Shown here in pieces: positions 44,214-62,761 of a stretch of 64,000 nt of DNA (its first letter is position 1; every line of letters begins with the position of its first letter). The DNA comes from Escherichia coli (GTDB lineage: Bacteria; Pseudomonadota; Gammaproteobacteria; Enterobacterales; Enterobacteriaceae), in assembly GCF_029227855.1 (NCBI RefSeq), contig NZ_CP074356.1; one strand, written 5' to 3'. The position numbers and the translations under genes were made by a program. Under the pieces are notes generated by a model. It was not told where the DNA came from and made no database searches. It was given only the letters and a program-made list of their open reading frames with translations.

Positions 44214-44550
44214 CATGACTCCTTGCTCATCGCATGAAGACTCCGAGAGTGAACCCCGTTAGAAAGGGTCACACGCATGCCCCAATACAAAATTATTTGC
44301 TCGCCTCTATCGTTGCCATTTCATCAAAAGAGGAAAAGACAATGATAAAAAAGTTACAAATATGTTAATGAATAAACCAAATTGATCCCGTAATTATATT
44401 ACGCCGCAAAATCCTTACAATAAACATGTTTTTATTGAGCAAATTTGCATTTTTCGACAGTGATCAATTTATAGCGAAATTGTCACGATCTCACCAATTT
44501 GATCTACGACAATTTATCGTGTTTTGCAGATTTTTTTCAAGAATTAAAAA

Positions 44551-44564
44551 TTGATTTATATCAA
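44551..44564. promoter_or_regulatory. FNR site in the cydA promoter region
   Basis: ttgatttatatcaa is a perfect TTGAT-N4-ATCAA. A weaker copy, ttgatctacgacaa, is at 44499-44512. Confidence 0.75.
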
Positions 44565-45018
44565 AACCAACCAAATATGTTAATTGTGTATAAACCATAG
44601 ATCATTGGTGATTTTATTGTTAATTTATTGTGAAATATTTATGCAACACAATTATTACAATGAAAAGGTATAGATAAAAAACCAGTGTTTTATTTAACAG
44701 AACCGCCTTATCCACTTTTTATAATACCAATTGATTAGATTAGCCAATTTGTTGCTATTTTACATAACATATTTTTATCAAAGTTAATTGATTGTTGCGT
44801 TTATGAGCACCGGCCGTAAGCCCGTTATGTTATTGTTTCATTAGTAATAATCACTTAAATGTATCGATGAAACAGGTATGACTTAGCGGGAGTGATTGTT
44901 TCTGAGTGAACAGAGACCACTTTCGCCTGATAAATGAAAAATGAGCGATTTTTGCAAGTTAGTTTTTCTATAGCCGAGTACGCTCAGCGCCTCGCTTGAT
45001 TACAATGAGGTTGCTGCT

Positions 45019-45963
45019 ATGAGTCCTGATAATATCAGTTCTGCTGTCAATCGCTTCTCAGGTTGGCCATCTAATGATCCTCTAAAAACAGATAAAGAAT
45101 CAATGACATCACCCATGACTGTGCAGGTAATAAAGATGATTGCCGCCATCCTTGACCCACATCGGATAGTCGTTGGAATCGATACACTTTATACAACGCA
45201 GCGCGAAACATTTACCTCAGAGAGTCAACAGCTCATTGAATCAGCATTGCAAACACTTCATGTGATGAATTTAAATAACCTGGAAACAAATCTCGATGAG
45301 GAAGGTCACTATCTGGCTTTTGGATATAACGTTGACACTCCTGACAGAATAACCGTTTCTGCTTATAATGAAAAAAAGCCTGGCTGCTATGGCCAATGTC
45401 TTTTAATACAGGATGACGAAACAGACTTATTTAACCTGATAAAAGTTAAAATTTTTGAAGCCAGGCATAATTATGTCGCTCAATTGATGAGCGATCCGGA
45501 ATTTATGTTCAAATTTAGTTATAGCGCTCAACAAAATAGATTAGAACCTCATCTTCTGGTTCCCACTTATTTCCCTCTAAAAACAAACGAACCGGTTACG
45601 CAAGAGGATGTACTGTTACTTTATCGTTTCTTTAAAATGGATGGTGATTTTAATATATTAACATCAGATGAATACATGAGTATCATGACACCTCTAATGA
45701 AGTGTGAGCGTAGCATCCACGACCACAACAGGTATGTGACGGGCAAAGATACCCTTCTTCTGGACTATCCTCCTTCTGGTAACCAGATATATTTCCATAT
45801 TTTTCCTGACGAATCAGCAACACTAGTCCTTTATTTTTCAAACAATGACATTGAATGTTTCGTCTTTGAAAGAGATATTCCGAGCCAGTATCGCTTTTTC
45901 AAAATGTTTACCAATCTGGCACTGGTTATTGATCAGTTAACCGATGCCAATCAAATACTTTAA
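45019..45963 (+). CDS. Hypothetical protein, 314 aa, with no recognisable family
   Basis: A 315-codon open frame in very AT-rich DNA, where stops are frequent, so coding is likely. A GAGG sits 8 nt upstream of the ATG. I could recognise no motif. Confidence 0.75.
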   Translation: MSPDNISSAVNRFSGWPSNDPLKTDKESMTSPMTVQVIKMIAAILDPHRIVVGIDTLYTTQRETFTSESQQLIESALQTLHVMNLNNLETNLDEEGHYLAFGYNVDTPDRITVSAYNEKKPGCYGQCLLIQDDETDLFNLIKVKIFEARHNYVAQLMSDPEFMFKFSYSAQQNRLEPHLLVPTYFPLKTNEPVTQEDVLLLYRFFKMDGDFNILTSDEYMSIMTPLMKCERSIHDHNRYVTGKDTLLLDYPPSGNQIYFHIFPDESATLVLYFSNNDIECFVFERDIPSQYRFFKMFTNLALVIDQLTDANQIL

Positions 45964-46043
45964 TTTTTATATATTCCCTGTGGCAAATATTGCTAAACAA
46001 TGCCCGGGGATTAATTTTTATTACTCACGGAAAGATTTAAATA

Positions 46044-46466
46044 ATGATCCCATCTCAAATCTCTTTCAACACCCTTCCTGTCAATGCAACATACGCTTCA
46101 GAGACAACAGTTGACACACAAAAATTCTCTGACATCCTCTACTCAGCGGGGTGTTCCCTAAAGGATCTGGCTTATTTGAGCAGATGTCTGGCATCAATAC
46201 ATCCGACTATCGCCAAAAACATTTATGAAACAGAAAATCTCAGCGATCAAAAATTACTACATATTGATTGCCGTAGTACAAATGAAATCAAGATAAATAT
46301 CTTTTTTGGTCGACAACGAGAAGGATTAATTGAAATTAGTTCTGACACAGTCATTTTTTCGATACTGTCTTCATTGATTGACTCCACCATTTCTAAATTT
46401 CAACACCAAAACCCCGTTAACGGTTCTGTAAATCCTGACCTATTGTATGAGGATTATACTGATTAA
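46044..46466 (+). CDS. Hypothetical protein, 140 aa, with no recognisable family
   Basis: A 141-codon open frame in AT-rich DNA, 80 nt downstream of the previous ORF on the same strand. The RBS is weak. Confidence 0.6.
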   Translation: MIPSQISFNTLPVNATYASETTVDTQKFSDILYSAGCSLKDLAYLSRCLASIHPTIAKNIYETENLSDQKLLHIDCRSTNEIKINIFFGRQREGLIEISSDTVIFSILSSLIDSTISKFQHQNPVNGSVNPDLLYEDYTD

Positions 46467-47013
46467 ATCCCTCCTGTCGCGAAAAATGGCCTGCGTTATT
46501 GCCAGACGTAATAAAACTTTTGATTAACGTTTCTCGTACTGGTAGCACCCTCATGTACTTTTCTTTTTTACGAAAAATCAAAAGAGCTAACAAAGGTCAT
46601 AATTCGCATGAATCATTAATTATTTGTTATTTTCAACATTATTTTTACATTAAGCAGAGATGAATTGCAGTGAAATTCGACTTAACTTTTATGAAATGCA
46701 TTTACTCATGGCTAAAGCCACGTCACAAAAATGCAAATTAGAAGTTGATCACAATTATCTCAATACATCAAATCAAGTTAATTTTAAAAATTTAACATTC
46801 ATGACATCAGTTGACATAACACACTGAATTAAAATGAGAATTTGAAAACACACTTTAAACAATCATTTCCCGAAAGACATTTTGAAAATAGATCAATTGC
46901 AACATTACGGTCAGATAAAGACACTCCTGTGATATTAAACCTGTGCCGTTATGAACGGCCATAAATACGACGTGTGTAACTTATTTTACTCTCTGTCTTA
47001 CAAAGGATTACCC

Positions 47014-47463
47014 ATGAAGAAAGCAACACTTGTGATTGGCGTTATTGGCGCGGACTGCCATGCAGTAGGCAATAAAGTTCTGGACCGCGTTTTTAGCAAC
47101 CATGGCTTCAGAGTCATTAATCTGGGCGTAATGGTCAGCCAGGACGAATATATTGATGCTGCCATTGAAACTGGTGCTGACGCGATTGTCGTCTCCTCTA
47201 TCTATGGGCATGGCGATATCGACTGTCTGGACATGCGCGAACGCTGCATCGAGCGTGGACTGGGGGACATCCTGCTCTATGTGGGCGGTAACCTGGTGGT
47301 CGGAAAACATGACTTCGCTGACGTGGAAACCAAATTCAAAGAGATGGGATTTGATCGCGTCTTTGCCCCAAGTCATGACTTAGAAGATGTTTGTCAGCTG
47401 ATGGCCCACGATATCAACCAACGTCATGACGTTGATACTCGTATTCTTGAAGAGGCAATCTGA
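47014..47463 (+). CDS. glmS: Glutamate mutase (methylaspartate mutase) sigma / B12-binding subunit. This is not the GlcN-6-P synthase glmS.
   Basis: [23 protein letters not shown] carries the base-off/His-on cobalamin motif DxHxxG (DCHAVG). RBS aaagga lies upstream of ATG 47014. It is homologous to clostridial GlmS/MutS. Confidence 0.92.
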
Positions 47464-48851
47464 TGCAAATCGTCTCTGTCGATATTGGATCGACGTGGAC
47501 CAAAGCAGCCCTCTTCGCCCGGGAGGGGGACGCGTTAACGTTGGTTAACCACGTACTGACCCCAACCACCCCCCATCATCTGGCGAAGGGGTTTTTCTCC
47601 AGTCTGAACCTGGTGTTAAACGTAGATGATGCCCTCCCCCTGTTTAACAGCGGTGAGGTTGCATTGAAGTATTCCTCCTCTGCCAAAGGTGGGCTGGCGG
47701 TTGCCGCAATGGGATTGGTGCCTTCTATCACCCTGGAAACCGCGAAAGTAACCGCTCACTCTGCGGGGGCTAAAATTGCGCAATATTACGCCTACAAGCT
47801 GAACCGCCGTGATATCCAGGCACTGGAAGAAACGCAGCCCGATATTCTCTTGTTCACCGGCGGCACCGACGGCGGAGAAGAAAGCTACGGCCTGAATAAC
47901 GCCCGTGTGCTGGCAGAATCCAAACTCGACTGCGCCATTATTTATGCCGGAAACCGGGATATTCAGGACAAGGTGCAGGAGATCCTAGGGCATAAAGACC
48001 TGACCATCGTCGACAACGTTCTGCCCGATCTTGACCATCCGAACCCTTTAGCTGCACGCCAGGCTATCTGCGACATATTCCTTAAACGCATCGTTAAAGG
48101 GAAAGGGCTGGATGTCGTTGTTGATAAAACAGGCGAAGAACCAATGCCGACACCGTGGACAGTCTTTGAACTGGTTAAGGCAATCAGTAATGTCGATCAC
48201 AGCTGGAAAGAGTTCATGCTGATCGACATGGGCGGCGCAACCACCGATGTCTATTCCGCCTGTGCCAACACGCTCTCGCCCGACACCGTTTTACACGGCG
48301 TACCGGAACCCTTCGTGAAACGGACGGTGGAAGGCGATCTGGGAATGCGCGTCTCGGCAATGGTGGTTGGTGAAAGTGCGAAAGAGTTAGTCAATGTGAA
48401 TTTTGCTCAGCAACCCGCACAGCTGGACGCTTTTTATCATTACCTCCGTCATCTAGTCGCTCATCCCGACTACTTACCCGCGAATTCAGAAGAAAAATAT
48501 TTCGATACCGTCCTGGCCGGACTGTGTGTGGGTTATGCCACCGAAAGACATGCGGGCACCAAAAAAGAGGTCTGCACCTGCGTCGGCAATGTCGATTTAC
48601 AGATGGGACGTGACCTGACAACCGTGCGTAAAGTCGTCGGATCCGGCGGATGGCTCTCGCGTGCCAGTCAGTTCGATATGCATCACTGGTTGAAATACCG
48701 CAAGTTAAACGACGACGGTAAACGCATTCTCTTACCGACCGAATTTGAATATTACCGCGATTCCCGGGGGCTATTACCATTGCTGGCAAACGTCGCCAGA
48801 GTCGATCCGCTGGCCGCCGCGCGCACCAGTATTCAATGCTTAACCCTATAA
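47463..48851 (+). CDS. glmL: Glutamate mutase accessory protein GlmL/MutL (ASKHA-fold putative reactivase)
   Basis: A 462 aa ORF ([18 protein letters not shown]...). Its start overlaps the glmS stop (TGATG) and it sits between the S and E subunits, as in Clostridium. Confidence 0.85.
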   Translation: MQIVSVDIGSTWTKAALFAREGDALTLVNHVLTPTTPHHLAKGFFSSLNLVLNVDDALPLFNSGEVALKYSSSAKGGLAVAAMGLVPSITLETAKVTAHSAGAKIAQYYAYKLNRRDIQALEETQPDILLFTGGTDGGEESYGLNNARVLAESKLDCAIIYAGNRDIQDKVQEILGHKDLTIVDNVLPDLDHPNPLAARQAICDIFLKRIVKGKGLDVVVDKTGEEPMPTPWTVFELVKAISNVDHSWKEFMLIDMGGATTDVYSACANTLSPDTVLHGVPEPFVKRTVEGDLGMRVSAMVVGESAKELVNVNFAQQPAQLDAFYHYLRHLVAHPDYLPANSEEKYFDTVLAGLCVGYATERHAGTKKEVCTCVGNVDLQMGRDLTTVRKVVGSGGWLSRASQFDMHHWLKYRKLNDDGKRILLPTEFEYYRDSRGLLPLLANVARVDPLAAARTSIQCLTL

Positions 48852-48869
48852 CAATTAAGGCTGCAATCA

Positions 48870-50315
48870 ATGGAACTTCGAAATAAGAAATTAACCCATG
48901 ACGAATTCATGACCGAGCGGCAACAGGTACTGAAAACCTGGGAAACCGGCAAGGATGTTGAAAACTTTGAAGATGGCGTTAAATACCAACAAACCATTCC
49001 TGAGCATAAACGCTTCTCTCTTGCGCTGTTGAAAGCAGACAAGGAAGGTAAAACCCTTAGCCAACCGCGCGCAGGTGTGGCGCTGATGGACGAACACATC
49101 GAACTACTGAAAACACTACAAGAAGAGTGCGATCTGCTGCCGAGCACTATCGATGCATATACCCGTCTGAATCGGTACGAAGAAGCGGCTGTAGGGATTA
49201 AAAAATCCATCGAAGCCGGAACCTCTAAACTGAACGGTTTGCCGGTAGTTAACCATGGCGTCGCAGCTTGCCGTCGCCTCACCGAAACCCTGCAAAAACC
49301 GCTACAGATCCGCCACGGCACGCCAGATGCGCGTCTGCTGGCTGAAATCTCGATGTCCAGCGGCTTTACCAGTTACGAAGGCGGCGGCATTTCCTACAAC
49401 ATTCCGTATGCCAAACGCGTAACGCTGGAAAAATCGATCCGCGACTGGCAGTACTGCGACCGTTTAATGGGGATGTATGAAGAACACGGGATCCGCATCA
49501 ACCGCGAACCGTTTGGCCCACTAACAGGTACGCTGATCCCGCCGTTTATCTCGCACTCTATCGCGATAATCGAAGGCTTGCTGGCGCTGGAACAGGGTGT
49601 GAAATCTATCACCGTTGGTTATGGACAGGTCGGCAGCCTGACGCAGGATGTTGCGGCGATCCAGTCTCTGCGTGAACTTGCACACGAATATTTTCAGAGC
49701 TATGGCTATACCGACTATGAATTAAGTACCGTGTTTCACCAGTGGATGGGCGGCTTTCCGGAAGACGAATCGAAAGCGTTCGCTATTATCTCCTGGGGCG
49801 CAGCCGTCGCGGGGATGTCTGGTGCCACCAAAGTCATCACCAAAAGCCCGCACGAAGCCTGGGGTATCCCGACTGCCGCTGCCAACATTCAGGGGCTGAA
49901 AGCCTCCCGCCAGATGCTCAACATGGTCAACGAGCAGAAATTCCCGCCGTGCCCTGCGGTTGAACTGGAAATTGAACTGATTAAGAGCGAGGTTCGCGCG
50001 GTACTGAATAAAGTGTTCGAACTGGGTAATGGTGATATTGCGCGCGGTACGGTGCTGGCATTTGAAGCGGGCGTACTGGATGTGCCGTTTGCGCCAGCCG
50101 CCTGCAACGCGGGCAAAATTCTTCCGGTCCGTGACAACACCGGCGCGATACGCGTACTGGAAGCCGGAGCCGTTCCATTGCCAAAAGATATTCTCGACCT
50201 CCACCACGATTACGTTGCTGAACGCGCACGCTTTGAAGGACGCCAACCGACATTCCAGATGGTTGTAGATGACATCAATGCTGTATCCCACAGTAAATTA
50301 ATAGGAAGACCATAA
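48870..50315 (+). CDS. glmE: Glutamate mutase epsilon (catalytic) subunit
   Basis: A 481 aa ORF. MELRNKKLTHDEF...SQPRAGVALMDEHIELL...PSTIDAYTRLNRY...HQWMGGFPEDESKAF aligns along its length with clostridial GlmE as I remember it. Confidence 0.93.
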   Translation: MELRNKKLTHDEFMTERQQVLKTWETGKDVENFEDGVKYQQTIPEHKRFSLALLKADKEGKTLSQPRAGVALMDEHIELLKTLQEECDLLPSTIDAYTRLNRYEEAAVGIKKSIEAGTSKLNGLPVVNHGVAACRRLTETLQKPLQIRHGTPDARLLAEISMSSGFTSYEGGGISYNIPYAKRVTLEKSIRDWQYCDRLMGMYEEHGIRINREPFGPLTGTLIPPFISHSIAIIEGLLALEQGVKSITVGYGQVGSLTQDVAAIQSLRELAHEYFQSYGYTDYELSTVFHQWMGGFPEDESKAFAIISWGAAVAGMSGATKVITKSPHEAWGIPTAAANIQGLKASRQMLNMVNEQKFPPCPAVELEIELIKSEVRAVLNKVFELGNGDIARGTVLAFEAGVLDVPFAPAACNAGKILPVRDNTGAIRVLEAGAVPLPKDILDLHHDYVAERARFEGRQPTFQMVVDDINAVSHSKLIGRP

Positions 50316-51556
50316 TGAAAATAAAACAGGCCCTTTTTACCGCTGGCTACTCCTCATTCTATTTCGATGACCAGCAGGCGATAAAAAACGGAGCGGGTCA
50401 CGACGGTTTTTTTTATACCGGGGAGCCAGTAACACAGGGGTTTAACGCCGTACGTCAGGCCGGGGAGTGCGTATCGGTACAGTTGATTCTGGAAAACGGC
50501 GCGGTCGCCGTAGGTGACTGTGCTGCCGTACAGTATTCCGGGGCAGGCGGTCGCGATCCACTGTTCCTCGCGGAGCACTTTATTCCGTTCCTCAACGACC
50601 ATATCAAGCCATTACTGGTAGGCCGCGATGTGGATGTTTTCCTGCCGAATGCCCGTTTCTTCGACAAATTGCGTATTGACGGCAACTTGCTGCATACCGC
50701 CGTGCGCTACGGATTATCACAGGCTCTGCTTGATGCTACCGCGCTGGCAACCGGCCGTCTGAAAACTGAAGTGATCTGTGATGAATGGCAGTTGCCACGC
50801 GTGGCGGAATCCATTCCATTATTTGGTCAGAGCGGGGACGATCGATATATCGCCGTCGATAAGATGATCCTTAAGGGCATCGACGTGCTGCCCCATGCGC
50901 TGATTAATAACGTCGAAGAGAAGCTGGGCTTTAAAGGTGAAAAACTGCGCGAATATGTCCGCTGGTTGTCGGATCGCATTCTGAGCAAGCGCACCAGCGC
51001 ACGCTACCACCCAATCCTGCACATCGATGTATACGGCACTATCGGTCTGATCTTCGATATGGATCCGCTTCGCTGTGCGCAATACATCGCCAGCCTGGAA
51101 AAAGAAGCGCAAGGCCTGCCGCTCTACATTGAAGGGCCGGTCGATGCCGGTAACAAGCCCGATCAAATTCGCCTGCTGACCGCGATTACCAAAGAGCTGA
51201 CGCGCCTCGGTTCCGGCGTGAAACTAGTGGCCGATGAATGGTGTAACACCTACCAGGATATTGTTGATTTCACAGATGCCGCCAGTTGCCACATGGTGCA
51301 AATCAAAACCCCGGATCTGGGCAGTATTCACAACATCGTCGATGCAGTTCTTTATTGCAACAGCCACAGCATGGAAGCGTACCAGGGCGGCACCTGCAAT
51401 GAAACTGATGTCAGTGCCCGCACCTGTGTCCACGTCGCCCTTGCCGCTCGCCCCATGCGTATGCTGGTAAAACCAGGGATGGGCTTTGACGAAGGCCTCG
51501 ATATCGTCTTCAACGAAATGAATCGTACTATCGCGCTGTTGCAGGCTAAGGATTAA
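50315..51556 (+). CDS. mal: 3-methylaspartate ammonia-lyase (enolase superfamily)
   Basis: A 413 aa ORF. MKIKQALFTAGYSSFYFDDQQAIKNGAGHDGF...AVQYSGAGGRDPLF...HMVQIKTPDLG...GGTCNET is clearly homologous to the Clostridium tetanomorphum methylaspartase. Its start overlaps the glmE stop (TAATG). Confidence 0.94.
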   Translation: MKIKQALFTAGYSSFYFDDQQAIKNGAGHDGFFYTGEPVTQGFNAVRQAGECVSVQLILENGAVAVGDCAAVQYSGAGGRDPLFLAEHFIPFLNDHIKPLLVGRDVDVFLPNARFFDKLRIDGNLLHTAVRYGLSQALLDATALATGRLKTEVICDEWQLPRVAESIPLFGQSGDDRYIAVDKMILKGIDVLPHALINNVEEKLGFKGEKLREYVRWLSDRILSKRTSARYHPILHIDVYGTIGLIFDMDPLRCAQYIASLEKEAQGLPLYIEGPVDAGNKPDQIRLLTAITKELTRLGSGVKLVADEWCNTYQDIVDFTDAASCHMVQIKTPDLGSIHNIVDAVLYCNSHSMEAYQGGTCNETDVSARTCVHVALAARPMRMLVKPGMGFDEGLDIVFNEMNRTIALLQAKD

Positions 51557-51559
51557 CAA

Positions 51560-52930
51560 ATGGCTCGTTCTTTTAAAGTCTTATCGCCAACGGCAATCCT
51601 CGGGTATGGATTCCCGGAAGAGAGCTTCCGCAAAGCGATGGCAGAATCGCCCGATCTGATCGCCGTTGATGCAGGCTCTTCCGATCCTGGCCCCCACTAC
51701 CTCGGGGCGGGCAAACCGTTTACCGATCGCGCAGGGGTCAAGCGCGATCTGCGCTATATGATCACCGCAGGCGTGCAAAATAATATACCGGTGGTGATCG
51801 GAACGGCCGGCGGTTCTGGTGCCGCTCCACACCTGGAGTGGTGCCGAGAAATAATTCATGAGATTGCCCGGGAAGAGCACCTCTCGTTCTCGATGGCGTT
51901 GATCCCGGCAGACGTTGACAAAGCCATCGTCCACCAGGCGCTGGATAACGGCAAAATCACGGCGCTGGAGTTTGTCCCGCCGTTAACCCACGACGCGATT
52001 GACGAAAGTACGTATATCGTTGCGCAAATGGGCATCGAACCCTTCCAGCGGGCGCTGAAAGAAGGCGCGCAAGTGGTGCCGGGCGGGCGCGCTTACGACC
52101 CGGCCTGCTTTGCTGCGCTTCCGATCATGCAAGGCTTTGATGAAGGTCTGGCGCTTCATTGTGGGAAAATCCTTGAATGCGCGGCAATCGCCGCAACGCC
52201 CGGCTCAGGCTCTGACTGTGCGATGGGCATCATTGATGACAACGGCTTTACGCTGAAGACATTTAATCCGAAGCGTAAATTTACCGAAACGTCAGCAGCT
52301 GCACACACACTGTATGAGAAATCCGATCCCTACTTCCTGCCTGGACCTGGCGGCGTGTTGAACCTGAAAGGCTGCACATTTAAAGCGGTCAATGACAGCG
52401 AAGTGTACGTCAGCGGTTCTAAGCATGAAGAAACGCCGTATTCCCTGAAACTGGAAGGTGCGCGACGGGTGGGCTTCCGCTGTCTGACCATCGCAGGAAC
52501 GCGCGACCCGATCATGATCGCCGGGATCGATAAAATCATCGATGAAGTCAAAACCAGCGTTTCGCGTAACCTGTCGCTCGACGATGACAGCATTCACATC
52601 AATTTCCACCTGTACGGCAAAAACGGGGTGATGGGCGACCATGAACCGATGCAAACTGCCGGGCATGAGCTGGGGATTGTCCTAGATGTAGTTGCGCCGA
52701 CCCAGGAAATTGCCAACAGCGTTTGCTCGCTGGTGCGCTCTACTATGCTGCACTACGGCTATGAAAACCGCATCGCTACCGCAGGCAACCTGGCGTTCCC
52801 GTTCTCCCCTTCTGATATCCAGGGCGGGCCGGTATACGAATTTTCCATATATCACCTGATTGAAGCCAACGACGCTCTGCGTTTTGATTTCCATATTGAA
52901 CAGGTGACGCCAGAAGGAGTTCAGGCATGA
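51560..52930 (+). CDS. Uncharacterised protein, DUF1446 / AtuA-like family (by recollection)
   Basis: A 456 aa ORF starting 3 nt after the mal stop. Its overall look and its pairing with a DUF4387-type small protein match AtuA-like proteins. The family assignment comes from memory only. Confidence 0.8.
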   Translation: MARSFKVLSPTAILGYGFPEESFRKAMAESPDLIAVDAGSSDPGPHYLGAGKPFTDRAGVKRDLRYMITAGVQNNIPVVIGTAGGSGAAPHLEWCREIIHEIAREEHLSFSMALIPADVDKAIVHQALDNGKITALEFVPPLTHDAIDESTYIVAQMGIEPFQRALKEGAQVVPGGRAYDPACFAALPIMQGFDEGLALHCGKILECAAIAATPGSGSDCAMGIIDDNGFTLKTFNPKRKFTETSAAAHTLYEKSDPYFLPGPGGVLNLKGCTFKAVNDSEVYVSGSKHEETPYSLKLEGARRVGFRCLTIAGTRDPIMIAGIDKIIDEVKTSVSRNLSLDDDSIHINFHLYGKNGVMGDHEPMQTAGHELGIVLDVVAPTQEIANSVCSLVRSTMLHYGYENRIATAGNLAFPFSPSDIQGGPVYEFSIYHLIEANDALRFDFHIEQVTPEGVQA

Positions 52931-53244
52931 AACAGTCAATTGTCTCACTGGCGCAAGTCATTCGTTCGAAAAATGCCGGACCTTACGAACTGGTTTTAGA
53001 TATTTTATTTAAAACGAAAGAAAACTATGAGCGAGTTAAATCATCAGGGCAATTAACCCCAGAACTGATTGCGCGCTTATATCATGTTGAACCTGACTTT
53101 ATTCACCGTATTGTCTGGTTTGATCCTTCTAACGCAGTAAAAATCGTCATGCCACGAGATATTATCTCCGGGAATGTAGGTGACAATGATGTCTATGGTG
53201 CACAGCAACATGCACCTTTATTAAATATGAGTTTCGATTTGTAA
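52927..53244 (+). CDS. Uncharacterised small protein, DUF4387-like
   Basis: A 105 aa ORF whose start overlaps the upstream stop (ATGA). The motifs VIRSKNAGPYEL and YGAQQHAPLL are what I recall as DUF4387 hallmarks. Confidence 0.8.
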   Translation: MKQSIVSLAQVIRSKNAGPYELVLDILFKTKENYERVKSSGQLTPELIARLYHVEPDFIHRIVWFDPSNAVKIVMPRDIISGNVGDNDVYGAQQHAPLLNMSFDL

Positions 53245-53326
53245 AAATCCGAATACTTTTAGCCAACTGACATCCCGTCACTTATTGCAGTTCAACACTT
53301 CAGCTATTTGTAAGGTTGTAATAGCA

Positions 53327-53360
53327 GGTAGATGCCTGAATCTCTATTCAGGCATCTACT
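53327..53360 (+). terminator. Long perfect inverted repeat between the DUF4387 gene and the transporter gene (possible attenuator/terminator or protein site)
   Basis: ggtagatgcctgaat-ctct-attcaggcatctac has a 14-15 bp stem, but the downstream T-tract is poor (ttctcctgatt). Confidence 0.4.
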
Positions 53361-53404
53361 TCTCCTGATTCTGATTTATCGCCGTGCACCTGATGGAGGA
53401 AAAA

Positions 53405-54685
53405 ATGAAGAAAATAAGTTTAACCACGATGATTCTTTTGGCGCTGGTACTTGGAATGATTATCGGCGTAGTGCTCAATAACACTGCTTCACCGGAAACC
53501 GCAAAACTCTATGCGCAAGAAATATCGATATTCACGACGATTTTCTTACGACTGATAAAAATGATTATCGCTCCGTTAGTGGTCTCTACCCTGGTGGTAG
53601 GTATAGCTAAAATGGGCGATGCCAAAGCCCTTGGTCGTATTTTTTCTAAAACACTCTTTTTATTTATTTGCGCCTCATTGCTGTCAATTGCCTTAGGCTT
53701 GATAACAGTAAATTTCTTCATGCCAGGCACAGGAATTAATTTTGTTGCACACGGAGCCGAAACCACCGGAGTGGTCGCGTCAGAACCCTTTACGCTAAAA
53801 GTATTTATTTCGCATGCTTTCCCCACCAGCATTGTCGATGCCATGGCGCACAATGAAATTTTGCAAATCGTGGTGTTCTCAATTTTCCTCGGCTGTAGCC
53901 TGACGGCGATTGGCGAGAAAGGCAGCGCCATCGTTCACGCCTTAGATTCGCTGGCACATGCCATGTTAAAGCTCACTGGCTACGTCATGCTCTTCGCTCC
54001 CCTGACCGTATTCGCTGCTATTTCAGCATTGATTGCTGAACGAGGACTGGCAGTTATGGTGAGCGCCGGGATCTTTATGGGTGAATTTTATTTCACCATG
54101 TTATTACTTTGGGTGCTGCTTATCGGTCTGGCCATCGTTTATGTTGGCCCCTGCATCAGACGCCTGACCCGCGCCCTTTCGGAACCCGCCCTGCTGGCAT
54201 TTACCACATCCAGTTCTGAAGCGGCTTTTCCGGGAACGCTTGAAAAACTGGAGCAATTTGGCGTTTCCCCAAAAATTGCCAGTTTTGTCTTACCCATTGG
54301 CTACTCATTTAATCTCGTTGGATCAATGGCCTACTGCTCCTTCGCCACAGTTTTCATCGCCCAGGCCTGCAATATCCATTTATCCATCGGTGAGCAAATC
54401 ACCATGCTGTTGATCCTGATGTTGACCTCGAAAGGAATGGCTGGCGTACCACGCGCCTCAATGGTGGTTATCGCCGCCACGCTCAACCAGTTCAATATTC
54501 CGGAAGCGGGGCTGATCTTGCTGATGGGCGTTGATCCGTTCCTTGATATGGGGCGTTCAGCGACAAACGTCATGAGCAACGCAATGGGCGCTGCGATGGT
54601 GAGTCGGTGGGAAGGCGAACATTTCGGCGAGGGCTGTCGGGGTAAAGCATTAAAACCCAATGAATCGAACGTTGCTCTGCCCTGA
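53405..54685 (+). CDS. DAACS-family (GltP/DctA-like) dicarboxylate/amino acid:cation symporter
   Basis: A polytopic membrane protein with the family motif TSSSEAAFP. I place the start at ATG 53405, behind GGAGGA. Alternative starts lie at 53384 and 53393. Confidence 0.88.
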   Translation: MKKISLTTMILLALVLGMIIGVVLNNTASPETAKLYAQEISIFTTIFLRLIKMIIAPLVVSTLVVGIAKMGDAKALGRIFSKTLFLFICASLLSIALGLITVNFFMPGTGINFVAHGAETTGVVASEPFTLKVFISHAFPTSIVDAMAHNEILQIVVFSIFLGCSLTAIGEKGSAIVHALDSLAHAMLKLTGYVMLFAPLTVFAAISALIAERGLAVMVSAGIFMGEFYFTMLLLWVLLIGLAIVYVGPCIRRLTRALSEPALLAFTTSSSEAAFPGTLEKLEQFGVSPKIASFVLPIGYSFNLVGSMAYCSFATVFIAQACNIHLSIGEQITMLLILMLTSKGMAGVPRASMVVIAATLNQFNIPEAGLILLMGVDPFLDMGRSATNVMSNAMGAAMVSRWEGEHFGEGCRGKALKPNESNVALP

Positions 54686-54792
54686 GGGGGATCTTAAGCA
54701 ATCAGAAGCCAATGACTACGCATTTTTATAAGCCGGATCATGAAGTTAGACGGCAATTAAGTAAAACTAACGTTTAAGGTGAAAAGTGAAAT

Positions 54793-56445
54793 ATGTCCAA
54801 ACCATTTATCTGGCAAGAACCGTTTCTACAAAATAAAGACGGTACAGAATATACATTAATTAGCGATCAACATATTACAGTAACGGAATTAGACGGCGAA
54901 GAAGTAATAAAAATCGCTCCTGAAGCATTAACGCTGCTTGCCCGGCAGGCATTTTATGAAGCCTCTTTTTTCTTACGTTCCGCTCATTTGCAACAGGTCG
55001 CCAGCATTCTTAACGATCCGCAGGCCAGTAGTAATGATAAATACGTTGCGTTGCAGTTATTACGTAATGCTGAAGTCTCAGCAAAAGGGGTATTACCCAA
55101 CTGTCAGGATACCGGCACCGCAACTATTGTTGCCAGTAAAGGGCAACAGATATGGACGGGAGGTAACGACGCTGAAGCCTTAAGCAAAGGCATTTACACC
55201 ACTTTTCAGGAAAATAATCTGCGCTTTTCACAAAATGCGCCACTGGATATGTTTACCGAAGTCAATACGCAAACCAATCTCCCGGCGCAGATTGATATCA
55301 GCGCCGTCGCTGGTGATGAGTACCATTTTCTCTGTATTAATAAAGGGGGCGGCTCTGCCAATAAAGCCGCGCTTTATCAGGAAACCAAATCCCTATTGCA
55401 ACCAGAAAAACTGACCGCATTTTTAATCGAAAAAATGAAATCGCTGGGCACCGCTGCCTGCCCGCCTTACCACATCGCCTTTGTCGTCGGAGGACTTTCA
55501 GCCGATCAAACCTTAAAAGTTGCCAAGCTGGCCTCAACGAAATATTACGACAATTTGCCCACCAGCGGAAACGAGCAAGGACAAGCATTCCGTGATATTG
55601 AGCTGGAAAAAGTATTGCTCGAGGCCAGTCAGCAATTTGGTATTGGTGCGCAATTTGGGGGTAAATATTTCGCTCATGATATTCGCGTCATTCGTCTGCC
55701 GCGTCACGGTGGCTCTTGCCCGATAGCTATGGCGCTCTCCTGTTCTGCGGATCGCAATATCAAAGCAAAAATTAACAAGCACGGTATCTGGCTGGAAAAA
55801 CTCGAACACAATCCGGGGCAATATATTCCAGCCTCACTGCGGGAAGAAAATCACGCGCAACATGTACAGCTGGATCTAAACCGTCCGTTGCGTGACGTGA
55901 TGCAGGATCTCGCCAGATTACCGGTAGGCACCCGCGTGTCGTTAAGTGGTCCCATCGTAGTGGCGCGCGATATCGCCCACGCCAAAATAAAAGCGCGGCT
56001 GGATAGCGGCGAACCGATGCCGGATTACCTGAAGCATCATATTGTCTATTACGCTGGCCCGGCGAAAACACCGGAGAACATGGCCTGCGGTTCACTGGGT
56101 CCAACCACGGGCGGTCGAATGGACGGTTATGTCGATACCTTCCAGGCGGTTGGCGGCAGTCTGGTGATGTTATCGAAAGGTCACCGCAGCCAGCAGGTCA
56201 CCGATGCCTGTCACAAACATGGCGGCTTCAATCTGGGAAGTATTGGCGGTGCAGCTGCGTTACTGGCGCAAGAATATGTCAAAAGTCTGCGTTGCCTGGA
56301 ATACCCGGAGCTGGGTATGGAAGCGGTGTGGATGATGGAAGTGGAAAATCTGCCCGCATTCATCCTGGTAGATGATAAAGGCAATAATTTCTTTAGTCAG
56401 TTTGAGCAGCAACACCGCTGCGCCAGTTGCCCTGCGGGACATTAA
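54793..56445 (+). CDS. fumD: Class I (Fe-S) fumarate hydratase homologue, the FumD-type mesaconase/fumarase
   Basis: A 550 aa ORF colinear with E. coli FumA ([11 protein letters not shown]...CQDTGTA...GGGSANK...CPPYHIAFV...GPTTGGRMD...). It is a third class I paralogue located in the methylaspartate cluster. Confidence 0.9.
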
Positions 56446-56454
56446 GGAAAATGA

Positions 56455-57057
56455 ATGGAAGCGCGAATTTCAACTGAACGGCATGTGCAGCGCCAGCAGA
56501 AATTGAAGGAACAGGTCGATACGCGCATCGCGGCGGCGATAGAGAAAAAAGGGATTTTGATTGTTTTCACCGGCAATGGCAAAGGGAAATCCACTGCCGC
56601 GTTTGGTACTGTGACGCGCGCGGTGGGTCATGGCAAAACGGTGGGGGTTGCGCAGTACATCAAGGGGCAATGGGACAACGGCGAATACAACCTTCTCCAG
56701 CCGCTGGGGGTTGAGTTTCATATTATGGGAACCGGTTTTACCTGGGAGACACAGAACCGGCAAGCGGATATCGACGCGGCGAAAGAGGTCTGGTCGGAAA
56801 GCAAACGGATGCTGGCTGACAAGCGTTACGACTTAGTGGTGCTTGATGAGCTGACCTATATGCTGGCTTACCATTATCTGGATACCGAAGAAGTGATCGC
56901 TTCTCTGCAAAACCGCCCGGCACAACAAAGTGTCATTGTCACCGGACGCGGTTGCCACAGTCAGATATTAAAAATGGCGGATACGGTCAGCGAAATCCGC
57001 CCCGTCAAACATGCTTTTGATAACGGCATTCAGGCGCAGCCGGGTATCGACTGGTAA
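56455..57057 (+). CDS. ATP:cob(I)alamin adenosyltransferase (CobA/BtuR family paralogue)
   Basis: A 200 aa ORF. ILIVFTGNGKGKSTAAFG (P-loop)...GFTWETQNR...VVLDELTYM...RPVKHAFDNGIQAQPGIDW aligns with BtuR. It starts 9 nt after fumD. Confidence 0.92.
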   Translation: MEARISTERHVQRQQKLKEQVDTRIAAAIEKKGILIVFTGNGKGKSTAAFGTVTRAVGHGKTVGVAQYIKGQWDNGEYNLLQPLGVEFHIMGTGFTWETQNRQADIDAAKEVWSESKRMLADKRYDLVVLDELTYMLAYHYLDTEEVIASLQNRPAQQSVIVTGRGCHSQILKMADTVSEIRPVKHAFDNGIQAQPGIDW

Positions 57058-57060
57058 TAA

Positions 57061-57092
57061 CTGCGCCTGGCATCCCGCCAGGCGCAGGTTTT
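57061..57092. terminator. Bidirectional hairpin between the convergent adenosyltransferase and LysR genes
   Basis: ctgcgcctgg-catcccg-ccaggcgcag followed by gtttta. Confidence 0.6.
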
Positions 57093-57996
57093 ACATCTCC
57101 TGCGGTACAACCGATTTCGCCAGCAACCATTCACGAAATTGCTGCAAGTGCGGTGAGTCAGACTTCTCTTCCTGCCACGTCATAATAAAACGATTACCGG
57201 TACGAATAGGCACATCACAGGGGATCACCATATCGCCACTATCCAAATCATGTTGAATAGCGAAACGTGGTAACAGCGCCACGCCGAGATTAGAGCGCAC
57301 GGCGGCAATCAGCATTGAAAGCAAATCGAAACGTGGTCCGTTGTTGACCAGTGGACTGCTAACGCCAGATAAAGCAAACCACTCTTCCCAGCCAGTAATA
57401 CGGGTGCTTTGATGCAGAAGTGGTAACTCAGTAAGCAGTTCTGCCACTGACAGTTTTTGATCGGACATTGCAAGCAAACTGCCGCTGCATACCGGCAAAA
57501 TCTCCTCATCAAAGAGATATTCTACTTCCGCCCAGGGCGCGCAAAAATTTTCGCGCATAATGACAGCATCGTACTCCCGATTAAGAAAATCGCCGTTATT
57601 AGCTAAAGAGTGAATATTAACAATAATATCGGGATGTAACTTTGTGAATTCATGTAAATTTGGGATTAACCAGTGGGTACTAAACGTAGGATTCACGGCA
57701 AGTTCAATAACCTGAACCGTAGGCTGCCAGGTCATAATAGTATTGGTATCGCGTTCCAGCTTATTTAATGTTTCTTTTACTATCCCCAGGTAATACTTCC
57801 CTGCATCATTAAGAAAAATACGTTTTTTAGAGTGTGAAAATAACGGAGTATGTAAAAATTCCTCCAGCGCACTCACTTGTCTGAATACAGCACTTTGGGT
57901 TAACGCTAACTCCTCTGCCGCTCTGGTATAACTTTCATAACGTGCGACGACCTCAAAAGTCACCAGCAGCTCCGTTTTAGGTATTTTTCCTCGCAT
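57091..57996 (-). CDS. LysR-type transcriptional regulator
   Basis: MRGKIPKTELLVTFEVVARYESYTRAAEELALTQSAVFRQVSALEEFL (wHTH) gives 301 aa from ATG 57996. The track ORF begins at an upstream TTG. The gene is visibly AT-rich. Confidence 0.88.
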   Translation of the reverse strand: MRGKIPKTELLVTFEVVARYESYTRAAEELALTQSAVFRQVSALEEFLHTPLFSHSKKRIFLNDAGKYYLGIVKETLNKLERDTNTIMTWQPTVQVIELAVNPTFSTHWLIPNLHEFTKLHPDIIVNIHSLANNGDFLNREYDAVIMRENFCAPWAEVEYLFDEEILPVCSGSLLAMSDQKLSVAELLTELPLLHQSTRITGWEEWFALSGVSSPLVNNGPRFDLLSMLIAAVRSNLGVALLPRFAIQHDLDSGDMVIPCDVPIRTGNRFIMTWQEEKSDSPHLQQFREWLLAKSVVPQEM

Positions 57997-58208
57997 AATT
58001 CCGTCCGTGAAAAAATAACAATTCAAAAATTATTTTATAAAAAACAGTAGCACTAATGAATATCATAATTCAAATAAACAAACCAGTCAGCTATATGTCT
58101 AACCAGGAAAATAAAGTGACAATAATCCTAAAACAGGAATTTCACCTCAGTTATCCGCATGCAATACTTTAAAGCTATTATTGCAAGAATATTATTCATA
58201 TACATGAA

Positions 58209-58334
58209 TATACTCTAAATAAGTCAAGTTGCAGGAAGGGAACAAATAATGAATTTCCAGAAGCTTACATAAGTAAGTGACCTGAGTGAGCGAACATCGA
58301 TGCAGCACATGCAACTTGAATTATGACAAGTATA
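58209..58334. repeat. ERIC (IRU) repeat, degenerate copy
   Basis: tatactctaaataagtcaagttgcaggaaggg...atgaatttccagaagcttacataagtaagtgacctgagtgagcg...gcaacttgaattatgacaagtata aligns end to end with the copy at 11653-11779. It has many substitutions that weaken the central hairpin. Confidence 0.85.
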
Positions 58335-58585
58335 CAATGATAAATTTATATACCCTATGTTATATATTATCTATGTCCGGTTAAATTGAATGAGTCATGG
58401 CCTTAAAAGACTTCACAAAAGATAATTCCTCTTTAACAATAAGCCAGATTTACCACTTGTAAAACTTGCTATCGCCACATACACTACGCGCGTTTTCTTT
58501 CCCTTTTGCTGGCTGCTGACCGGAAAGACAAAATTACCCTCGCAATACAGGGGGTTGTTTAACGTCTATATTTCAGGACAGCGTT

Positions 58586-59983
58586 ATGCATCATCTTTCA
58601 AGGCTTGATAAAGCCTTTCTGCGCAAAGGGATCCAACTTTCCCGCGCCAACAATATTGTTTCATTATCTCGTCCATCAGGTGCCAGTGCCCGCGTACTGC
58701 TGCCGGACGAACTGCCGCTGGAAGAAAAAGCAGTAACACAACTGCTTGATTTTGCAGAAGTGAAGCTACCAGACCACCCAGGTTATGTGCGCCAGACGTG
58801 CGCGACGCCAGATTTTCATCCCGGCAATGGCGTCCCCGTTGGCGCGGTGGTGGCCTCAACGCCGGATTTAGTCATTCCCGCCGCCATCGGCACCGATATT
58901 TCTTGTGGCATGCGGCTGCTGACGACCGGATTAACACTTGAGCAAGCCGAAGCGCATAAAGACATCATCGCTCAGCGGTTAACGCAAGTGCTGCTGCAAA
59001 ATGAGCGCGATGTTCCGTTATCCGCACAGGCGTTCACTGCGCTTTTTGATGGCGGACCGGCAGATTGCGTGTCGACCTTGCCATCAGCAGGTCTCTGGAC
59101 ACGCACGAATATCCCCCGAATGGTACAAGAGATTGACTGCTGCATTGGGCTTAACGAGCATAACAGTCATTCGCGTTATGCCCCACCCGCCCTGCTGGCA
59201 ACGGACCGCGCATTACTCCGCGATCCTTGTCTGGGTACGCCGGGTTCAGGTAATCATTTTATTGAACTTCAGGTCGTTGATAGCGTGGTTGATCGCCATG
59301 TAGCCTGGCAACAAGGGCTGAAAACAGGCGATATTGTGGTGATGATCCACAGTGGATCGCGAGATGTTGGCTTTTACGTCGGAAGACGCTGGATGGATCG
59401 CGCCCGTGCTGAATGGCCCACCGGACATAAACATCCACAAAGCGGGTTATATGGTCTGGCAGGCGGACTGGCGGAGGAATATCTACAAGCGATAGGAATG
59501 GCTGCGCGTTACGCGTGGTTAAATCGCGTCACAATTGCCGAAATGGTGCGCGTATGTCTCGCCAATCTCTTTCATCAGGACAATTCGCATCTGGTGGTGG
59601 ATGTGCCGCATAACATCATCCTTCGCGAGCATGAAATGAATATTCATCGCAAAGGTGCAACACCGGCACGAGTGGGCGATCTGGCATTAATCCCCGGTTC
59701 AATGGGCGATTATTCGTGGCTTGCAGTCGGTTGCGGCAACCCGGAGTGGCTGTGGTCATGCAGTCACGGAGCAGGACGCAGCCAGCGTCGACAGGCCATG
59801 CGCTCAAGCGCGACTGAAGAGTCAACGCTGCCGTGGCAATGCGTCACATTGCGTGAAGAACGACGTCTTGAAGAAGCGCCAGCGGCTTATAAAGATATTG
59901 GTCCGGTTATCGAAGCCCAACAAGAAGCCGGATTAATTCAACCAGCGGTCAGATTTCGACCGTGGTTAACGTTTAAGGGGTAA
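58586..59983 (+). CDS. RtcB-family RNA 3'-phosphate ligase homologue (stand-alone)
   Basis: A 465 aa ORF carrying the RtcB signature motifs DFHPGNG, GTDISCGM, GSGNHFIE, HSGSRDVG, VPHNI, HRKGATP, PGSMG, SHGAGR and EAPAAYK. Confidence 0.9.
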   Translation: MHHLSRLDKAFLRKGIQLSRANNIVSLSRPSGASARVLLPDELPLEEKAVTQLLDFAEVKLPDHPGYVRQTCATPDFHPGNGVPVGAVVASTPDLVIPAAIGTDISCGMRLLTTGLTLEQAEAHKDIIAQRLTQVLLQNERDVPLSAQAFTALFDGGPADCVSTLPSAGLWTRTNIPRMVQEIDCCIGLNEHNSHSRYAPPALLATDRALLRDPCLGTPGSGNHFIELQVVDSVVDRHVAWQQGLKTGDIVVMIHSGSRDVGFYVGRRWMDRARAEWPTGHKHPQSGLYGLAGGLAEEYLQAIGMAARYAWLNRVTIAEMVRVCLANLFHQDNSHLVVDVPHNIILREHEMNIHRKGATPARVGDLALIPGSMGDYSWLAVGCGNPEWLWSCSHGAGRSQRRQAMRSSATEESTLPWQCVTLREERRLEEAPAAYKDIGPVIEAQQEAGLIQPAVRFRPWLTFKG

Positions 59984-60065
59984 CTGAAATGATAAATGGC
60001 CTGCGGTTCTCACGCAGGTCAAATCTGGTATCTGCGTAAGCTAACAAACTTGTTTATCAACAATC

Positions 60066-60089
60066 TCAGGCCATCCGAAGATGGCCTGA
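60066..60089. terminator. Hairpin downstream of mngB
   Basis: tcaggccatc-cgaa-gatggcctga stem-loop. There is no clear U-tract on either strand. Confidence 0.35.
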
Positions 60090-60127
60090 AATTATTGCCC
60101 CCCTTAGATACACTTTTAGCGCAATAA

Positions 60128-62761
60128 TCAGCCAAGGCGGTAGCTAAATGTCCGTGACTGCCCCGGTAAAAATGCCCCCAGTTCCTTTAAATTATCTCTT
60201 TCCGCTGTGCTGATGCTTTCATCCATCATCGTTTGCGTACATGAAATCACCTCACGACTGAACGCGACAGTTGCCTCACAGGTTGTCGATTCTGCCGGAT
60301 TAAACAGTCGCAATACCACTTCTTGCCGGTCTTCCGCTTTTTTAAGAGCGCTAATCAGGCATCCCACAGGGGGCATTTTCAGCAAGCTATAGCTTTCCGG
60401 CACATTGAATCCGGCTTTATTTAACTTCATCGCATCCCACGGGATTTTGTTGTAACACTGTACTGGCGTCAGCCATGCACGCGCCTGCTGGGCTACACCG
60501 GCGGTCGAAGGCGTACCTGTATAACTAAATAAGCTCAGACGGCAGCTAAAGGAGCCACGTAATTGTGAATCGGGCACCGGCATTTTTATACCCGAAGGAC
60601 GTCCAGGCCTTAAAAGCAGATCTTCTTTCCCCAGTAAGCCCACGCCACGCAGCAACGTAATGGCAAAGGTTTTCTTCTCTTCACCGATGACTTCGAATTC
60701 ACGTAGCCCTTCGCTAAAGACAGCCAGACCGTTACGCCCTTCCTGTAAGGCAGCATAGTTGAGCATATTCCATACCGGAACAGGCGCTTCTTTCCAGCCT
60801 TCTTGTTGCCAGACATCCATCGCACTGTCGCTCACCGGGCGCGTTAGCGAACCAAACTGGGTATCGGCCAGAACATTGTCGGTGTTGAAAGGTGTAGGGA
60901 CCAGGACGCGAAGGCGATGATCGTCAGCCTGGTTATCAAGGTTGATAACCACATCAATGCGCCTGCTGTTATCACTCAGAGTGACAACCAACTCCACCCC
61001 TACTCTACCCGTGCATTGCCGTGCGCTGCGTTCTTGTAGATTACGCGGCACCGCCATGTCATAGCGGATAACAGCCCTGCTCTGCCAGGCCTCATGAATA
61101 ATCTCGCATTGCGGTTTCGCATTCGCCGAAGTAATTACCCACTCTTCTTTTGCAGGTGAATAGTCATATTCATCACCATCATCAGAGCTTTCTTCAATTT
61201 GCAATACCCGGTCATAGCGCACACCGCTGTCTTTATCTACCAGTTGTAGCGTTCCATCCTCATTGAGCGCAATTTGCCAGAAAGCATTTTCCAGTATCCC
61301 TTCAGCGTCACTTTTTGCCGCAATCACGTTGCCAGGCTGATTCGTTTCGATATAAAGCGTGCGATAGCCCATAGAAGGGACAATCTGGTTGATCTGAATA
61401 TCAAACTCCATAAAGGGATCGTAATTACCGTAATGAACGATTTGCCGATCGATTAGGCCAGGATCGATCTCACGGGCATGGCGAATAAAATACGGTACAG
61501 GCTGACCGCGATCGTCCCGCAAATTAAACTGGCTAGCGCGCAGCCGCACAGTGGTGTTGATCACTTCTTCCCGCGGCCAGGGCATCAGGTTAAACAGCAC
61601 AAGTTTGTCGGCATCACTCTGTGGCATGTTATCGGCAATTTTGCGCATGTAGAAACGAATCAGATTATCCGCCATGTCTTCAGCCAGTTCGAAGCGGGCG
61701 ACGATTTCGCGATGAACTTTGTCACTGCAACAACAACCGATACTGTCGTGGGCATGATTTTTTAAGATCTCTTTCCACATTTTCTCCAGCAAGCCGTGGT
61801 GGTATTCAAAACCTAAAGTCCAGGCCAGTGTTGCCAGCGGTTCCAGCAGATTAACAATCTTATTTTCAATACGCGCGTGGGCAATTTTGATATCCATGCG
61901 CGTGGAACCGATGGTGCGATGCACGCGCATATATTTGCCATCGATAAATTCACCTTTCAGAGTCGCCAGATTATCTCGCTGCGCTTCAATCTGCTCGAAT
62001 ACCTCTTCAAAGCGGCTCATCACAAACTTTCGTTGAGGATAAATTTCGCGAAGTTTCTCCATCACTTCGAAGATATTTTGCTGCAATGGCATCTGATCAT
62101 GACCATTCGGCAATAAAATTTCTTTGGTTACTGACGCTTTTTCCAGCACGTCAAAATAACTGTCGAGACGTTTGCGTAATCCGTCTTCGTCGGCAGGTAA
62201 GTACTTACCGATGGCGTAGCCCAGCGGCAGCACCTGCGCCGTCACTTCGCTACCATCACTGCTTTGCCACAAAAACTCGGTTTTATCAGTACCGTGGCGC
62301 TCAGAACATCCGCGCCAGAACATGGTGCGGGTAATGCCAAATCCATTGTAAATATGCGGCAGTTGCTCGGACATGCCAAAGGAATCTGGTAAATAACCTA
62401 TTTTCATCGGCTCGCCAAACGCGAGGCAGTCACGCATTCCGTACATCAGATTACGGACGATGGATTCCGCAGAAACAATCGTGGTATCGGTCTGGGTATA
62501 CCAGGGGCCGATAATCAACTTACCGGCTTCTACCAGTTTCTTCACGCGCTCTTTGTTTTCCGGTTTCACCGCGAAATAATCTTCGAGGATCGCCGTTTGC
62601 CCGTCGAGTACGTAATATTTGTATTCGTTGTCCTGTTCCAGTCGGCGCAGGATCTCTTCCATATTATTGACCAGCAGAATGCGTGACTCTTCGGTGGTGA
62701 AATACCACTCCCGATCCCAGTGCATATGCGGGGTGATGTGAACGCGAGATACCGCTTTCAT
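60128..62761 (-). CDS. mngB: Alpha-mannosidase / mannosylglycerate hydrolase
   Basis: An 877 aa GH38-type ORF ([22 protein letters not shown]...). Confidence 0.95.

Follow-up and report, generated by a model that had tools for sequence, protein, structure and literature searches.

The window analysed here, a stretch of 64,000 nucleotides (nt) from Escherichia coli (contig NZ_CP074356.1 of assembly GCF_029227855.1), contains a glutamate-fermentation island in which the methylaspartate ammonia-lyase gene mal is followed by two further genes, referred to here as cmlA and cmlB (Table 1). Both open reading frames (ORFs) lie where an earlier reading made from the letters of the window (the sequence-only reading) had placed them. 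The mal stop codon (TAA, 51554–51556) is separated from the cmlA ATG by 3 nt (51557–51559), and the cmlB ATG (52927–52929) overlaps the cmlA TGA (52928–52930) to form an ATGA. This spacing supports translational coupling, as expected if the pair is co-translated with the pathway enzymes.

The family assignments made by the sequence-only reading, DUF1446 (AtuA) and DUF4387, hold in Pfam. CmlA matches PF07287 (AtuA, formerly DUF1446; E = 3.8e-19, 69.3 bits against a gathering cut-off of 22.8) over profile positions 61–396 of 437, a partial match that suggests a divergent member of the family. CmlB matches PF14330 (DUF4387; E = 2.6e-39, 134.3 bits against a cut-off of 27) over profile positions 2–97 of 98. 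No model in NCBIfam release 20 fits CmlA, CmlB, or the fused AtuA-DUF4387 relatives described below. At least 6813 homologues were found, with identities of 60–90% across Enterobacterales, Riflebacteria, Lentisphaerota, Spirochaetes, Firmicutes and others, and the cmlA-cmlB pair is present at 95–100% identity in 1125 of 5426 complete E. coli genomes, O157:H7 and O55:H7 genomes being among the matches. Such strong conservation marks both ORFs as genuine genes, not chance reading frames. The AtuA/DUF4387 family as a whole comprises 2370 clusters at 50% identity. Across 115 family representatives, 23 residues are kept in at least 90% of the sequences, and all 23 are present in the window CmlA. 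Conserved throughout the family are D42, R177, D180, E206, E253, E299, E370 and H432, together with the glycines of the loops ‘DAGSSDPGP’ and ‘GGSGAAPH’, which makes these residues candidates for catalysis and nucleotide binding.

A phmmer search against the PDB matched the large protein to chain A of entries 9ERQ and 9EVF over residues 1–456 (E = 4e-289) and the small protein to chain B of the same entries (E = 5e-57). The ungapped full-length identity is 91.2% for CmlA and 84.6%, over 104 residues, for CmlB. The depositors named these molecules ‘Citramalate lyase, subunit A (cmlA)’ and ‘subunit B (cmlB)’, with ‘AtuA family protein’ and ‘DUF4387 domain-containing protein’ as second labels; one entry is titled ‘Citramalate lyase - ADP - pyruvate complex’ (released 2025-10-08) and the other ‘Citramalate lyase - AMPPNP - citramalate complex’ (released 2025-10-22). 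Each entry holds both chains, and in family proteins of ∼610 residues DUF4387 is fused to the C-terminus of the AtuA domain. The crystals and the natural fusions together support a physical CmlA-CmlB complex, which had been anticipated from the gene overlap. The crystallised enzyme is probably that of Raoultella planticola from the Berg laboratory. In a preprint of January 2026, R. planticola cmlAB, a gift of the Berg laboratory, was used to cleave citramalate to pyruvate and acetate in vivo; the cmlAB-dependent growth required mesaconate and vanished on plasmid curing, and isotope tracing followed the carbon into acetyl-CoA. Citramalate cleavage and adenine nucleotide binding are therefore known for the orthologue, from the PDB titles and the preprint, and would extend to the window pair by likeness.

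Kronen and Berg (2015) had flagged the pair in the same island of E. coli O157:H7 as ‘DUF1446, unknown function’; in that strain, citrate lyase, isocitrate lyase and methylisocitrate lyase gave no citramalate lyase activity, and the fate of citramalate was called unclear (PMC4682846). We conclude that the pair very probably encodes the two subunits of a coenzyme A (CoA)- and acyl carrier protein-independent (S)-citramalate lyase, the E. coli orthologue of the 9ERQ/9EVF enzyme. The near-identity to this enzyme, its use in the preprint, the neighbouring genes and the finding, described below, that the pair and citEF exclude each other all indicate that CmlAB fills the citramalate lyase step left open for the E. 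coli island in 2015. Among the roles offered by the sequence-only reading, this corresponds to the replacement for a missing citramalate lyase, and the name given by the depositors to the orthologue bears it out. The accompanying claim of undescribed biochemistry did not stand: the substrate- and product-bound structures date from October 2025, and the January 2026 preprint employs the enzyme as a tool, so that it is already solved, named and in use, and the claim of novelty is outdated.

To place the pair in its genomic context, we searched 80 genome loci, from one-per-species genomes, by tblastn with the window proteins and with E. coli CitE and CitF; denominators below 80 refer to the loci with enough flanking DNA. 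CmlB follows CmlA in all 77 loci with enough DNA downstream, Mal lies directly upstream of CmlA in 62 of 73, and GlmE is present in 58 of 64, in line with the conserved placement that had been suspected. The gene order glmS, mutL, glmE, mal, AtuA, DUF4387 recurs on Pfam-annotated contigs from three phyla and was met in Riflebacteria, Lentisphaerota, Spirochaetes and Firmicutes. Neither CitE nor CitF was found by tblastn within 10 kb of cmlA at any of the 80 loci. In a second, mal-centred sample of metagenomes, seeded with a Firmicutes Mal, cmlAB occurred without citEF at 3 loci, citE and citF without cmlA at 8, and both together at none; the remaining 69 loci, most of them from one redundant human-gut lineage, had neither within reach. 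The clostridial-type loci, where CitE was detected at 37–38% and CitF at 49–51% identity, serve as a positive control for the 0/80 result. Because the two sets never occurred together in the mal-centred sample and co-occurred at 0/80 loci in the first, cmlAB and citEF are alternatives at one position of the pathway. The window itself conforms to this pattern: tblastn found no CitE or CitF homologue anywhere in its 64 kb, in agreement with the sequence-only reading, which had seen no citramalate lyase gene in the island; the pair itself is not the classical CitDEF enzyme.

Some cmlAB pairs lie elsewhere. Mal is absent within 10 kb in 9 of the 73 cmlAB loci with enough flank (∼12%), and pairs with neither glm nor mal within that distance were seen in Accumulibacter (L007/L008), Desulfospira (L057), Shewanella (L058), Luteimonas (L065), Syntrophobacter (L074) and at locus L051. 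CmlAB evidently has uses outside glutamate fermentation, since such pairs occur without glm or mal. The pairs at these named loci are 57–67% identical to that of the window, and their neighbours are unrelated and uninformative, one pair adjoining a carboxyltransferase gene. Conversely, a large group of near-identical glmS-glmL-glmE-mal contigs from human-gut metagenomes (L102, L113–L169) has neither cmlAB nor citEF within reach, and the citramalate-cleaving step was not located there.

Outside the window, a conserved protein of ∼315 residues with a Walker A motif (GxxGxGKST) is encoded in many of these clusters (for instance at L003:11677–12618, L002:11712–12665 and L005:11698–12654); it matched no Pfam, NCBIfam or PDB family. 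This P-loop protein follows cmlB in 36 of 42 non-enterobacterial mal-linked loci and was considered as a third subunit of CmlAB. We rejected that assignment because the protein is missing from all 18 enterobacterial loci and from the mal-less cmlAB loci, and occurs in 7 clusters of the citEF type. It seems to be an uncharacterised accessory protein of the glutamate mutase/methylaspartase clusters.

Several points weigh against reading the window pair as a working citramalate lyase. The functional name rests on the titles given by depositors to the orthologue and on use in one preprint; in that preprint, laboratory evolution was required before Cml supported growth; and the mechanism set out below is inferred from the names of the crystal ligands only. 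In addition, the window carries an unusual allele. Residue 174 of CmlA is proline (codon 174, C at nt 52080), where 24 of 25 diverse homologues of the CmlA clade have leucine, as do the crystallised enzyme, the E. coli cluster representative and strain JNEC-KY178. The residue is located in a predicted β-strand (172–175) just before the invariant G176-R177-x-Y-D180 motif. The exact window protein has no record in an index of 153 billion genes. L174P could be an artefact of sequencing, a private change without effect, or a mutation that impairs the enzyme and leaves this allele defective; the identity of the gene is unaffected.

The alternative that survives best follows from this allele: the pair would be cmlAB by descent, but cryptic or impaired in this strain or in E. 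coli generally, with the island unexpressed under known conditions and L174P disrupting a core strand. The pair is 99.9% identical to that of JNEC-KY178, and over 24,441 aligned nt the window differs from this strain at two positions, 52080 and 52447, both within cmlA. Such clustering, the absence of the proline from the closest genome, from the cluster representative and from the index, and its place in the predicted strand would all fit an impaired allele, while a silent island would agree with the finding that O157:H7 showed no methylaspartase activity and no glutamate-dependent growth (PMC4682846). Nonetheless, the other genes of the island are intact and carry no pseudogene flags in the annotation of the near-identical JNEC-KY178, and the pair is maintained at 95–100% identity in 1125 E. 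coli genomes, a sign of selection. One proline substitution does not prove inactivity, and it could stem from a sequencing error. We regard a cryptic or impaired cmlAB as unlikely.

The two other roles offered by the sequence-only reading, a branch reaction and repair of the radical enzyme, gained nothing in their favour beyond the circumstances of the family and its location. In the former, the pair would act on another C5 dicarboxylate, activating, isomerising or decarboxylating mesaconate or methylaspartate. The large and diverse family and the 9 of 73 loci without mal, where it can work outside glutamate fermentation, would leave room for such a reaction, but the crystals of the 91%-identical orthologue hold citramalate and pyruvate, in the preprint citramalate formed from mesaconate is converted to pyruvate and acetate in a cmlAB-dependent manner, and the pair and citEF are mutually exclusive. 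This role is very improbable and has already been largely refuted. That the pair assists or repairs the B12-dependent radical enzyme glutamate mutase is scarcely credible: despite its tight linkage to glmSLE-mal and the adenine nucleotide bound by the orthologue, reactivation and adenosylation are already provided by GlmL and CobO, cmlAB is also found without glm genes, CitEF-type clusters lack the pair entirely, and the crystal ligands are citramalate and pyruvate.

With CmlAB as citramalate lyase, the island would encode a complete route. Glutamate would be imported by the GltP-like symporter and rearranged to 3-methylaspartate by GlmSE with the aid of GlmL and CobO; Mal would then deaminate 3-methylaspartate to mesaconate, FumD would hydrate mesaconate to (S)-citramalate, and CmlAB would cleave (S)-citramalate to pyruvate and acetate. 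The assignment of this last step of the methylaspartate pathway to CmlAB is well supported.

The release of acetate from a free carboxylate demands that a very poor carbanion be stabilised, a task for which the classical citrate or citramalate lyase uses an acyl-carrier thioester. The two ligand pairs in the CmlAB crystals look like the substrate and product states of a reaction involving ATP. Based on these pairs (AMPPNP with citramalate, ADP with pyruvate) and by analogy with CitDEF, we tentatively propose, at slightly less than an even chance, that the C–C bond is cleaved by a retro-aldol step via an acyl phosphate. ATP would transiently phosphorylate the C4 carboxylate of citramalate, and the resulting acyl phosphate, like the thioester in CitDEF, would stabilise the carbanion on the acetate side; once the retro-aldol cleavage is complete, the phosphate group would either be transferred back to ADP, giving acetate, or leave as acetyl phosphate. 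Alternatively, the bound nucleotide could be a structural or allosteric ligand, with the cleavage simply metal-assisted. A more speculative and rather doubtful extension of the acyl-phosphate proposal is that ATP is regenerated as a cofactor, not consumed, and that the AtuA/DUF4387 proteins are nucleotide-assisted lyases of a mechanistically new class, which release acetate from free carboxylates. If true, this would make fused AtuA the hydroxy-isohexenylglutaryl-CoA:acetate lyase that has long been presumed.

The island is flanked by cydAB and mngBA, and its features are listed in Table 1. The ORF of glmS, delimited mechanically, begins at 46951, while the RefSeq start of the near-identical strain corresponds to 47014; for the symporter gene, the RefSeq start corresponds to 53405. 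The symporter was called GltP, and the FumD enzyme was characterised, by Kronen and Berg in 2015 (PMC4682846). The 139-nt spacer between cmlB and the symporter gene (53245–53383) folds at −38.5 kcal/mol (z = −4.66; 0 of 200 shuffles as stable). Its perfect hairpin is a possible attenuator, terminator or RNA-stabilising element, and may split the island into two units of transcription or stability. No riboswitch or other RNA upstream of glmS was found in Rfam at E≤0.1 (44000–60200). No promoter is claimed, because a scan returned 22 candidates, no excess over the 21.4 expected from shuffled sequence.

Table 1. Features of the glutamate-fermentation island and of the cmlAB pair (positions are those of the window).
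Feature	Position	Strand	Details
glmS, methylaspartate (glutamate) mutase subunit S	47014–47463	+	NCBIfam NF002612, E = 1e-75; RefSeq annotation of JNEC-KY178
glmL/mutL, mutase accessory (reactivating) protein	47463–48851	+	TIGR01319 at 878 bits; PF13941
glmE, methylaspartate mutase subunit E	48870–50315	+	TIGR01503 at 863 bits
mal, methylaspartate ammonia-lyase	50315–51556	+	TIGR01502 at 544 bits
Shine-Dalgarno-like AAGGA	51548–51552	+	Within the end of mal, 7 nt 5′ of the cmlA ATG; read from sequence
cmlA, probable citramalate lyase large subunit, AtuA/DUF1446 family	51560–52930	+	456 aa, ATG start; L174P allele (C at 52080)
Shine-Dalgarno-like GAAGGAG	52913–52919	+	Within the end of cmlA, 7 nt 5′ of the cmlB ATG; read from sequence
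cmlB, probable citramalate lyase small subunit, DUF4387	52927–53244	+	105 aa, ATG start
Perfect 15-bp hairpin in the cmlB-gltP spacer	53327–53360	+	Predicted by RNA fold
GltP/DctA-like dicarboxylate/amino acid:cation symporter, presumed glutamate importer	53384–54685	+	PF00375, E = 2e-102
fumD, class I fumarase/mesaconase (mesaconate to (S)-citramalate)	54793–56445	+	NF011921 at 1281 bits
cobO/cobA, ATP:cob(I)alamin adenosyltransferase	56455–57057	+	TIGR00708, NF004637
Terminator-like GC-rich hairpin at the operon end	57061–57087	+	11-bp stem, 9 GC pairs
Divergent LysR-family regulator of the island	57091–58026	−	PF00126 and PF03466

Two AT-rich ORFs (45019–45963 and 46044–46466; 34–38% GC) at the island's left edge, between cydA and glmS, have no Pfam match and are hypothetical proteins in RefSeq; the ∼480 nt from there to glmS are non-coding and gave no Rfam match. 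At the right edge, the LysR regulator adjoins a stand-alone gene for an RtcB-family RNA ligase (58586–59983), with no rtcA or rtcR seen beside it.

Genes for CmlAB occur in about one-fifth of the complete E. coli genomes, in many Enterobacterales and in anaerobes from several phyla. The genes are currently labelled ‘acyclic terpene utilization AtuA family protein’, ‘DUF4387’ or, wrongly, ‘3-methylaspartate ammonia-lyase’, and the name citramalate lyase is absent from Pfam, NCBIfam (June 2026) and RefSeq. The erroneous label, which several public records give to CmlA homologues (P0002, P0060 and P0073), was remarked upon in 2015 by Kronen and Berg (PMC4682846) and is still being propagated. Transfer of the name would complete the methylaspartate pathway in these organisms and close the gap of 2015, and it would give the large AtuA family a defined activity that can be tested. 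A two-protein citramalate lyase without CoA or an acyl-carrier prosthetic group is also a compact part for synthetic pathways, and has already been used as such.

Among known systems, the window pair is closest to the CmlAB of 9ERQ/9EVF, likewise encoded by two genes for a 456-residue AtuA-family subunit and a 105-residue DUF4387 subunit in the same enterobacterial glutamate-fermentation island, and with the same predicted fold (TM 0.95). The crystallised enzyme comes from another species, and the window proteins differ from it by 40 (CmlA) and 16 (CmlB) substitutions, L174P included.

The classical citramalate lyase (EC 4.1.3.22)/citrate lyase CitDEF of Clostridium tetanomorphum and its relatives likewise converts (S)-citramalate to acetate and pyruvate, but consists of unrelated proteins without sequence similarity to CmlAB. 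It is built of three subunits, one of them an acyl carrier, bears a phosphoribosyl-dephospho-CoA prosthetic group, works by acetyl-thioester exchange and requires CitC, CitX and CitG to become active. CitDEF occupies the same place in the methylaspartate pathway and adjoins glmSLE-mal in its hosts (PMC4682846), yet does not co-occur with cmlAB in the sampled loci. The (S)-citramalyl-CoA lyase (Ccl, CitE-like), together with a CoA-transferase, also yields pyruvate from citramalate carbon, in the catabolism of mesaconate and itaconate; unlike CmlAB, this lyase belongs to the HpcH/CitE-like family, acts on a CoA ester and yields acetyl-CoA. No genes for this route are present in the window.

AtuA, which serves acyclic terpene utilisation in Pseudomonas and Thauera, resembles the pair in its order of Pfam domains, PF07287 followed by PF14330, and in the residues D42, R177, D180, E206, E253, E299, E370 and H432, which are common to both. 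AtuA is one fused polypeptide of ∼600 residues (615 in Thauera), whereas the window pair is two genes, and the fused representatives compared are 35–41% identical to the pair in the AtuA-domain part and 34–41% in the DUF4387 part. AtuA is located in the atu operon with the genes of geranyl-CoA carboxylase; the pair lies beside mal in the glutamate-fermentation island, and the window holds no atu genes. Being split, of such limited identity to the compared fused representatives (35–41%) and in a different operon, the pair is a member of the Pfam families and not AtuA proper. AtuA's activity has, to our knowledge, never been shown with purified protein, and LiuE reportedly has the activity presumed for AtuA as well; still, calling the reaction of AtuA unknown, as the sequence-only reading did, was too strong a statement. 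The presumed substrate of AtuA is a CoA ester, unlike that of CmlAB, and its presumed reaction also splits acetate off a tertiary β-hydroxy acid, through the free-carboxylate arm. Since this is the same kind of acetate-releasing cleavage, the CmlAB assignment would, by analogy, make the old proposal that AtuA is an acetate lyase more credible.

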